From IMG/VR virus record IMGVR_UViG_3300029286_000013: a stretch of 64,000 nt of DNA; one strand, written 5' to 3'. Under the pieces are notes generated by a model. It saw only the letters and a program-made list of their open reading frames with translations, was not told the origin of the DNA and searched no databases. Source of the DNA: a virus. Positions within the stretch are counted from its first letter, which is position 1, and each line of letters starts with the position of its first letter. Shown one piece after another: positions 16,330 to 16,825 of the stretch. Made by a program: the position numbers and the translations under genes.

Positions 16330-16375
16330 TCAAACCCGTAACTGTTCATTTATCACATCGGGTCATCTCTTGTAA

Positions 16376-16456
16376 AGATGAACTTCGTTCATCTAAGAAC
16401 TCACTTCGTTCGTTCTTATATTTTACGGTTATCTATTCTATTTTACTGTTAATCTA
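16376..16456 (-). other. Two cGAAg-capped hairpins plus AT-rich 20-bp-period direct repeats
   Basis: Minus strand AGATGAAC-GAA-GTTCATCT and AAGAAC-GA-AC-GAA-GT-GA-GTTCTT; plus strand ATTTTACGGTTATCTA / ATTTTACTGTTAATCTA. Confidence 0.6.
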
Positions 16457-16459
16457 ATA

Positions 16460-16825
16460 AGGACTATATTGCCGCTTTGAAGCCATGGTAGTGCTATTCA
16501 GCACTACCAATAGTAAAGGTTGTTTGCACGCCCGTCATCCGTTGTTATTTCTTCCCCACTTAATTAGCTATTTGATGCTATTAAATGCTACCGGTTGCTC
16601 TGTAAAGTTTATGGGACTGTAGTTGAATTTACGCACACTCTGTGTTTCATCCAGCAACGCACATTCTATGACGCAGAAATAAAGTTGTCATAGACTTGTT
16701 GAAGGTTCGCTTTGTCGATTGCCTTCTCGGTATTCCGTATATATCGCTATACACGCTTACTCCAGATCCGTCAGCACAGCACAATCTGTACAAACTCAAG
16801 GAGGTCCTGCAACCAGGACGACACA
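16460..16825 (-). ncRNA. Candidate large structured non-coding RNA
   Basis: No ORF of 60 aa or more, visibly more GC-rich than other spacers, at least six stems. G-U pairs and a GCGA tetraloop work only on the minus strand. Confidence 0.6.

Follow-up and report, generated by a model that had tools for sequence, protein, structure and literature searches.

What is the function of two small, abutting hairpins that lie in a gap between converging phage genes? The question was raised by a stretch of viral DNA of 64,000 nucleotides (nt) (IMG/VR record IMGVR_UViG_3300029286_000013, hereafter the window), for which the original prediction had suggested that the hairpins, nearby AT-rich repeats, and an adjacent structured RNA may be one unit, an R-loop replication origin or a packaging or primase signal. 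We asked whether the hairpins are conserved, which strand and which molecule carry the selected features, and which of several possible functions accounts for them best.

Genomic setting of the hairpin module

The window derives from a T4-related jumbo myovirus with a G+C content of 36%. By portal protein (about 50% identity), the closest cultured phages are Sinorhizobium phage Phosso, Agrobacterium phage Atu_ph07, and Pseudomonas phage PA5oct. The portal gene (10657-12450) and the gene for a gp29-like protein (12475-15204) lie on the minus strand and are followed on the plus strand by a gp26-like baseplate hub gene (15275-16105) and a converging open reading frame (ORF) of 58 amino acids (aa) (16153-16329), whose stop codon adjoins the hairpin module. 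A geneless gap of 508 nt separates this ORF from a PD-(D/E)XK endonuclease gene on the minus strand (16838-17416; Pfam PDDEXK_15, E value of 8.5e-23; phrog_244, labeled RusA-like in PHROGs). Beyond the endonuclease gene lie a radical SAM protein gene and then the homologues of gp46 and gp47, all on the minus strand. The module therefore stands where a plus-strand late baseplate-hub operon and a minus-strand recombination-gene operon meet, and its placement beside recombination genes, which had been part of the original prediction, is correct: gp46/gp47 and the nuclease gene lie beside it.

Two abutting hairpins in the window

Read on the minus strand, HP1 (16376-16394) consists of a perfect 8-bp stem and a 3-nt GAA loop (TTC on the plus strand) closed by a C-G pair. 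HP2 (16395-16417), on the same strand, has a 6-bp stem, a tandem 2x2 mismatch that reads GA/GA on the minus strand and TC/TC on the plus strand, a 2-bp apical stem, and a 3-nt loop, again GAA on the minus strand and TTC on the plus strand. The two hairpins abut with 0 nt between them. Both of the minus-strand c-GAA-g triloop hairpins described at the outset, the second with its GA/GA mismatches, were thus recovered, with slightly refined coordinates.

On either strand, the 55-nt module folds better than shuffled sequences with RNA parameters and also with nearest-neighbor DNA parameters, which do not model the extra stability of DNA mini-hairpins (z of about -2.7 to -3.2; 1 to 3 of 200 shuffles fold as well). 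Because the window contains 29 perfect hairpins of at least 7 bp (9 to 24 in shuffles), this single-sequence fold is only moderately unusual, and the stability of HP1 is likewise only moderate, at -7 to -14 kcal/mol. The significance of the module comes from comparison with relatives rather than from single-sequence folding. A covariance model built for the module finds a single copy in the window, scoring 81 bits on the minus strand versus 13 bits on the plus strand, and one copy each in complete relatives of 352 and 524 kb. Since it is present once per genome, the module is neither a general terminator nor a dispersed repeat.

Conservation and covariation among relatives

Relatives were collected with two queries. 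The gp26-like protein retrieved 80 IMG/VR loci with 96 to 33% identity, and a word from the neighboring RNA retrieved contigs from viral and from metagenome sequences, more than 119 of each among the matches listed, both numbers being lower bounds. Among these listed matches, the module recurs in about 300 phage contigs, in 191 distinct versions. The relatives share a common order of hub gene, 58-aa ORF, HP1, HP2, A/T-rich linker, structured RNA, and opposite-strand nuclease gene.

In an alignment of 14 diverse relatives, every pair cell (224/224) is Watson-Crick, so that pairing is 100%. Two-sided changes are seen in 9 of the 16 pairs and one-sided changes in none, a level of pairing and compensation that was reached by 0 of 500 shuffles. 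For HP1, two-sided changes affect 4 of the 8 pairs; its perfect 8-bp stem is found in nearly all relatives in at least 12 stem versions, and its basal part is invariant. The twin hairpins are real and under strong selection.

The elements outside the Watson-Crick stems are conserved as well. On the minus strand, the HP1 loop begins with G and ends with A in 171 of the 191 distinct versions, and an HP2 apex of the form GA-2bp-loop-2bp-GA is kept in 184 of the 191, with G..A loops in 168 of those 184. GA/GA accounts for 94 of the 98 HP2 2x2 loops. The GA/GA steps occur in one to three tandem copies; more distant relatives have two or three of them, at 2-bp spacing and always in a 5'-Y-GA-R-3' context, which favors sheared G-A pairs. 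Where the loops are tetraloops, they are GNYA and not the RNA-typical GNRA. The junction between the hairpins is also kept, the HP2-HP1 gap being zero in 79 of 88 versions. The original prediction had proposed conservation of the GAA loops and GA/GA pairs as a check, and had named unconserved loops as evidence against itself; these counts show both features maintained.

In a small subgroup (L082, L118, and L126), an unrelated G+C-rich 8-bp stem, whose loop reads AGA or AAA on the plus strand, takes the place of HP1, and HP2 retains two GA/GA steps. What seems to be required of HP1 is accordingly its shape and not a particular sequence.

An additional plus-strand ORF of 165 to 248 aa, which belongs to DUF6071 or has no Pfam family, is present in some relatives (L140:4737-5234, L169:3162-3773, L180:1998-2741, L189:5217-5963, and L123:6024-6521). 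None was recognizable as a homing endonuclease, a possibility we had considered. The extra ORF is inserted between the 58-aa ORF and HP1 and never between the hairpins and the RNA; the module stays beside the RNA despite the insertion, and the stop codon of the new ORF adjoins HP1. In some relatives, the stop codon of the 58-aa ORF or of the inserted ORF touches or overlaps HP1.

The adjacent structured RNA

On the far side of the linker, a conserved structured core RNA of about 375 nt is encoded on the minus strand at 16462-16836, in the same orientation as the PD-(D/E)XK endonuclease gene that lies directly 5' of it in all relatives. Conservation extends over its full length in 64 of the 80 related loci. 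The consensus fold contains 64 pairs, 35 of them with compensatory changes, and its closing helix joins the 5' leader at about 16826-16829 to about 16470-16476. When helices were predicted without G.U pairs and then used as a strand test, 16 G.U cells were found on the minus strand versus 1 on the plus strand. By this comparative evidence, about 16462-16836 is a genuine structured RNA on the minus strand. It includes several near-invariant single-stranded stretches, and in one of these, just after the 5' hairpin of the core, an anti-Shine-Dalgarno-like word is seen at 16804-16819.

Searches with this region returned no counterpart in Rfam, in cultured phages, or in prokaryote genomes. An Rfam search of 14000-19000 at a permissive threshold (E values up to 1) yielded only a chance-level match inside the hub gene, and a tRNA/tmRNA search found none. 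There was no blastn match to the region in 50,697 phage records, and no match when the syntenic regions of Atu_ph07 and PA5oct were searched with a profile. A hairpin word of the core RNA had 0 matches in 185,579 prokaryote genomes, and a metagenome scan with a core RNA word gave only DNA contigs, with no transcript-sized contigs, among the matches listed. The core RNA is previously undescribed and is found in uncultured freshwater jumbo phages, in about 300 contigs among the matches listed.

The hairpin module lies outside the closing helix of the core RNA, on its 3' side, at a distance of 22 to 114 nt in every locus examined; by this position it is a 3' appendage behind an A-rich linker. Long-range helices that would enclose the module are no more than a lead: those between cognate segments were barely longer than those between shuffled or noncognate ones (6.91 versus 6.60 in one comparison; 5.58 versus 5.38, with a standard deviation of 0.12, in a second), and the few clear compensatory cases all fell within one subgroup.

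Strand of the selected features

Core RNA and hairpins share the minus strand. In a plus-strand reading, the conserved mismatches become U-C/U-C and the loops UNC, which correspond to no known stabilizing design. The RNA fold of HP2 is more stable on the minus strand than on the plus strand in 24 of 24 variants, and in 4 versions the closing pair of HP1 is U.G on the minus strand (C.A on the plus strand). As judged from the aligned sequences, the non-Watson-Crick features are intelligible only in the minus-strand reading. We infer that RNA, rather than single-stranded DNA, is the molecule under selection.

The linker between hairpins and RNA

The A/T-rich linker (16418-16461 in the window; A-rich when read on the minus strand) is variable, with a median length of 50 nt among relatives. 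Its conserved part is a position-specific T-rich tract directly after HP2 on the plus strand (16418-16426), which is an A-tract before HP2 on the minus strand. In 119 distinct flanks, T content at positions +2 to +7 after HP2 is 60 to 82%, versus 44% in the remaining linker. Two 13-nt AT-rich direct repeats with a period of 20 also lie in the linker of the window (16419-16431 and 16439-16451), as the original prediction had noted, but a comparable repeat is found in only 8 of 212 distinct flanks, which makes the repeats lineage specific. The proposal of a single unit is supported for the hairpins and the RNA, which always occur together, on the same strand and in single copy; the repeats are not a conserved member of the unit. 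A plus-strand promoter within the repeats had also been a candidate; it became moot once the core RNA was placed on the minus strand.

Cumulative GC skew and the position of the module

The whole-genome cumulative GC skew, a check put forward with the original prediction, was calculated for the complete 352-kb relative (G001), whose genome was rebuilt from 18 stretches. The skew has its minimum at about 19 kb and its maximum at about 281 kb, both exactly at gene-orientation switches, and the module is located at 13.2 kb. This genome has two large transcription arms: between about 20 and 281 kb the genes lie on the plus strand, and from about 281 kb around to about 20 kb they lie on the minus strand. 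In the window, the minimum forms a plateau at 21.5 to 23.5 kb, at a divergent gene pair (22361/22489), and the module is at 16.4 kb. The extremum therefore lies about 6 kb from the hairpins, at an orientation switch, and in this test no replication signal appeared at the hairpins to support the R-loop origin that had been proposed. Because skew follows gene orientation, however, it is weak evidence either way.

A replication origin, a terminator, or a factor-binding site?

Could the hairpins nevertheless act as DNA? They might be a single-stranded signal in a transcript-primed origin of the ColE1 or T4 R-loop kind. Minus-sense RNA would hybridize to its template in the A/T-rich tract, and the displaced strand, of the same sense as the RNA, would fold into the HP2 and HP1 mini-hairpins, which would hold the bubble open or serve as an initiation site for primase or helicase loading. 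At the ColE1 origin, the structured RNA II primer is followed by the origin and then by a primosome assembly hairpin on the displaced strand. The locus repeats this order and strand geometry, with a long folded RNA, an A/T-rich tract, and hairpins downstream on the RNA-sense strand, but it has no sequence similarity to ColE1, no antisense regulator was seen, and its RNA is far more conserved than a primer needs to be; the near-invariant single-stranded segments in particular suggest that the core RNA has a function of its own. The module also resembles the DNA mini-hairpins of Hirao and colleagues. The hairpins formed by d(GCGNAGC) and d(GCGNNAGC) are much more stable as DNA than as RNA, and motifs of this type are known from the complementary-strand origin of phage G4, plasmid ssiA, and the virion-polymerase promoters of phage N4 (PMC13037366). 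Like these, the module has C-G-closed GNA or GNNA loops and sheared G-A pairs on a 2-bp apical stem, and in 53 of the 184 relatives the HP2 apex agrees exactly with GCGNAGC or GCGNNAGC. Together with the cGNAg triloops and GNYA tetraloops, these exact matches are in keeping with the loop and mismatch style that the original prediction had described as unusually stable in single-stranded DNA. The module differs from the mini-hairpins in that the second pair of HP2 in the window is A-T and not G-C, and in that the apex is flanked by tandem GA/GA steps as part of a longer helix, which belongs to the sense strand of the transcribed RNA next to it.

The single copy per genome, the adjoining gp46/gp47 and nuclease genes, and the distance of only 6 kb (1.7% of the genome) between module and global skew minimum in the complete 352-kb relative also speak for an origin. 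Yet the minimum coincides with the switch in gene orientation rather than with the hairpins, the curve at 16.4 kb bends only with the local plus-strand gene island, and the AT-rich repeats that might have served in unwinding are not conserved. The T4 origins oriF (uvsY) and oriG, for their part, are made up, over about 100 bp, of a middle promoter with an unwinding element that acts independently of sequence; they share no common motif and need no hairpins (PMC3016281). Adjoining recombination genes, a T4-related genome, and an A/T-rich tract are found here too, but the elements of the module are sequence specific, the stretch immediately upstream on the minus strand is occupied by the folded core RNA, and at least 375 nt separate the module from the nearest upstream RNA start. 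Promoter-like matches near the locus are below chance (10 found versus 14 expected). We regard a single-stranded DNA signal in an R-loop origin as unlikely, although it is the first of the alternatives in our ranking. Its most specific form, in which RNA, A/T tract, and mini-hairpins would together make up a ColE1-like transcript-primed origin of this uncultured freshwater jumbo phage clade, with the hairpins as a primosome initiation signal, appears slightly more doubtful still. Were it true, T4-related phages, whose known origins share no motif, would possess an origin that is sequence defined and deeply conserved. Should the hairpins act as DNA, jumbo T4-related phages would have their first origin signal defined by sequence, and a phage with double-stranded DNA would be making natural use of DNA mini-hairpins.

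Two further explanations rank together below the origin. In one, the main task of the module would be to end the late plus-strand transcripts of the hub gene and the 58-aa ORF as an intrinsic terminator, its minus-strand features being incidental. It shares with intrinsic and bidirectional terminators a place between converging operons and stem-loops with a T-tract on one side; the T-tract is position specific, and the last plus-strand stop codon often touches or overlaps HP1 even when a different ORF has been inserted. The hairpin that precedes this tract on the plus strand, however, is the mismatched HP2, which there reaches only -2.8 kcal/mol in the window, and selection for termination would purge mismatches that are instead retained in 184 of the 191 versions. 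On the minus strand there is no U-tract to speak of: within 10 nt after HP1, no run of U exceeds 3 in any of the 119 distinct flanks, and a consensus terminator scan of 15000-18000 gave 0 sites on both strands, so that the module does not qualify as a minus-strand intrinsic terminator. For the view that the hairpins act only as a terminator, the plus-strand U-tract speaks in favor; no canonical terminator is present on either strand. Long perfect hairpins built from and flanked by A- and T-runs occur elsewhere in the window, at 5783-5806 and 9708-9738, and look like the ordinary bidirectional terminators of this phage; they are constructed differently from the module, which is unique in the genome. 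The module may well limit plus-strand read-through, but this does not explain why the mismatches are kept, and termination as its primary role is improbable. A comparably low probability is assigned to the view that the module is primarily a specific site in the RNA recognized by a factor of phage or host origin (such as a chaperone, a processing RNase, or the neighboring PD-(D/E)XK nuclease), with the tandem G-A platform as the determinant and end protection as a secondary effect. Retention of the GA/GA steps and their multiplication to as many as three copies at 2-bp spacing, the invariant base of HP1 and zero-nt junction, and the fixed order of nuclease gene, RNA, and hairpins would all suit such a site. 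The module resembles kink-turns and other RNA motifs with tandem sheared G-A pairs in its tandem 5'-Y-GA-R-3' steps; it is nonetheless not a kink-turn, because all its GA/GA steps lie in symmetric 2x2 loops and the defining asymmetry, a 3-nt bulge, is absent, and any binding partner is putative.

A proposed 3' end module of the RNA

The explanation that we place highest, while holding it tentatively, is that the hairpins form or protect the 3' end of the minus-strand RNA and offer a docking site there, and that they also insulate the converging operons. A minus-strand transcript downstream of the PD-(D/E)XK nuclease gene would carry the RNA of about 375 nt, with the hairpins as its 3' appendage. 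After the closed core fold and the A-rich linker, HP2 and HP1 would stack end to end, the helix of HP2 gaining stiffness from tandem sheared G-A pairs and ending in its G..A loop, and HP1 contributing its perfect stem. The two hairpins could then define and protect the 3' end of the RNA, either by serving as a noncanonical stop or by blocking 3' exonucleases. The G-A platform would probably also dock a protein or another part of the RNA, and the module would probably limit plus-strand read-through into the RNA gene. End formation, protection, and docking are the roles that we infer from this arrangement.

The position of the module just outside the core closing helix is where the 3' end element of an RNA gene would be expected, and the T-tract after HP2 on the plus strand suggests that the module also separates the two converging transcription units. 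Against a 3' end role stand the moderate stability of HP1, the missing minus-strand U-run, and the DNA-type loop repertoire. Stability alone is unlikely to be the selected trait, because Watson-Crick pairs would outdo GA/GA. If the hairpins do act in RNA, they would mark where a large phage RNA, deeply conserved and so far undescribed, has its 3' end, and would do so with a compact, strand-asymmetric structure made from tandem G-A pairs and GNA loops. Whether it functions as RNA or as DNA, the module is a sharp single-copy landmark by which the RNA gene can be found and oriented in metagenomes.

Other features near the module

Between HP1 and the converging stop codon of the 58-aa ORF lies a further element on the minus strand, HP0, whose 5-bp stem pairs 16334-16338 with 16359-16363. 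HP0 encloses a conserved 19-nt word (16336-16354, minus-strand reading) that is present in 112 of the 212 distinct flanks and is duplicated in relative L122, where it is displayed twice in hairpin loops. The word resembles the core of the phage late promoter, except that its final base is G and not A. We considered 16346-16355 (minus strand) as a standard late promoter and rejected it, as the gene-proximal late boxes in the window end in A (NATAAATA) and the G-ending form is scattered through coding sequence.

The 58-aa ORF is in the -1 frame relative to the hub gene and is kept in all relatives, with 51 to 86% identity. At the 3' end of the hub gene (region 16093-16142), a T TTT TTC heptamer is followed by a strong hairpin at 16106-16142. 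The combination of heptamer, hairpin, and -1-frame ORF is consistent with a programmed -1 frameshift.
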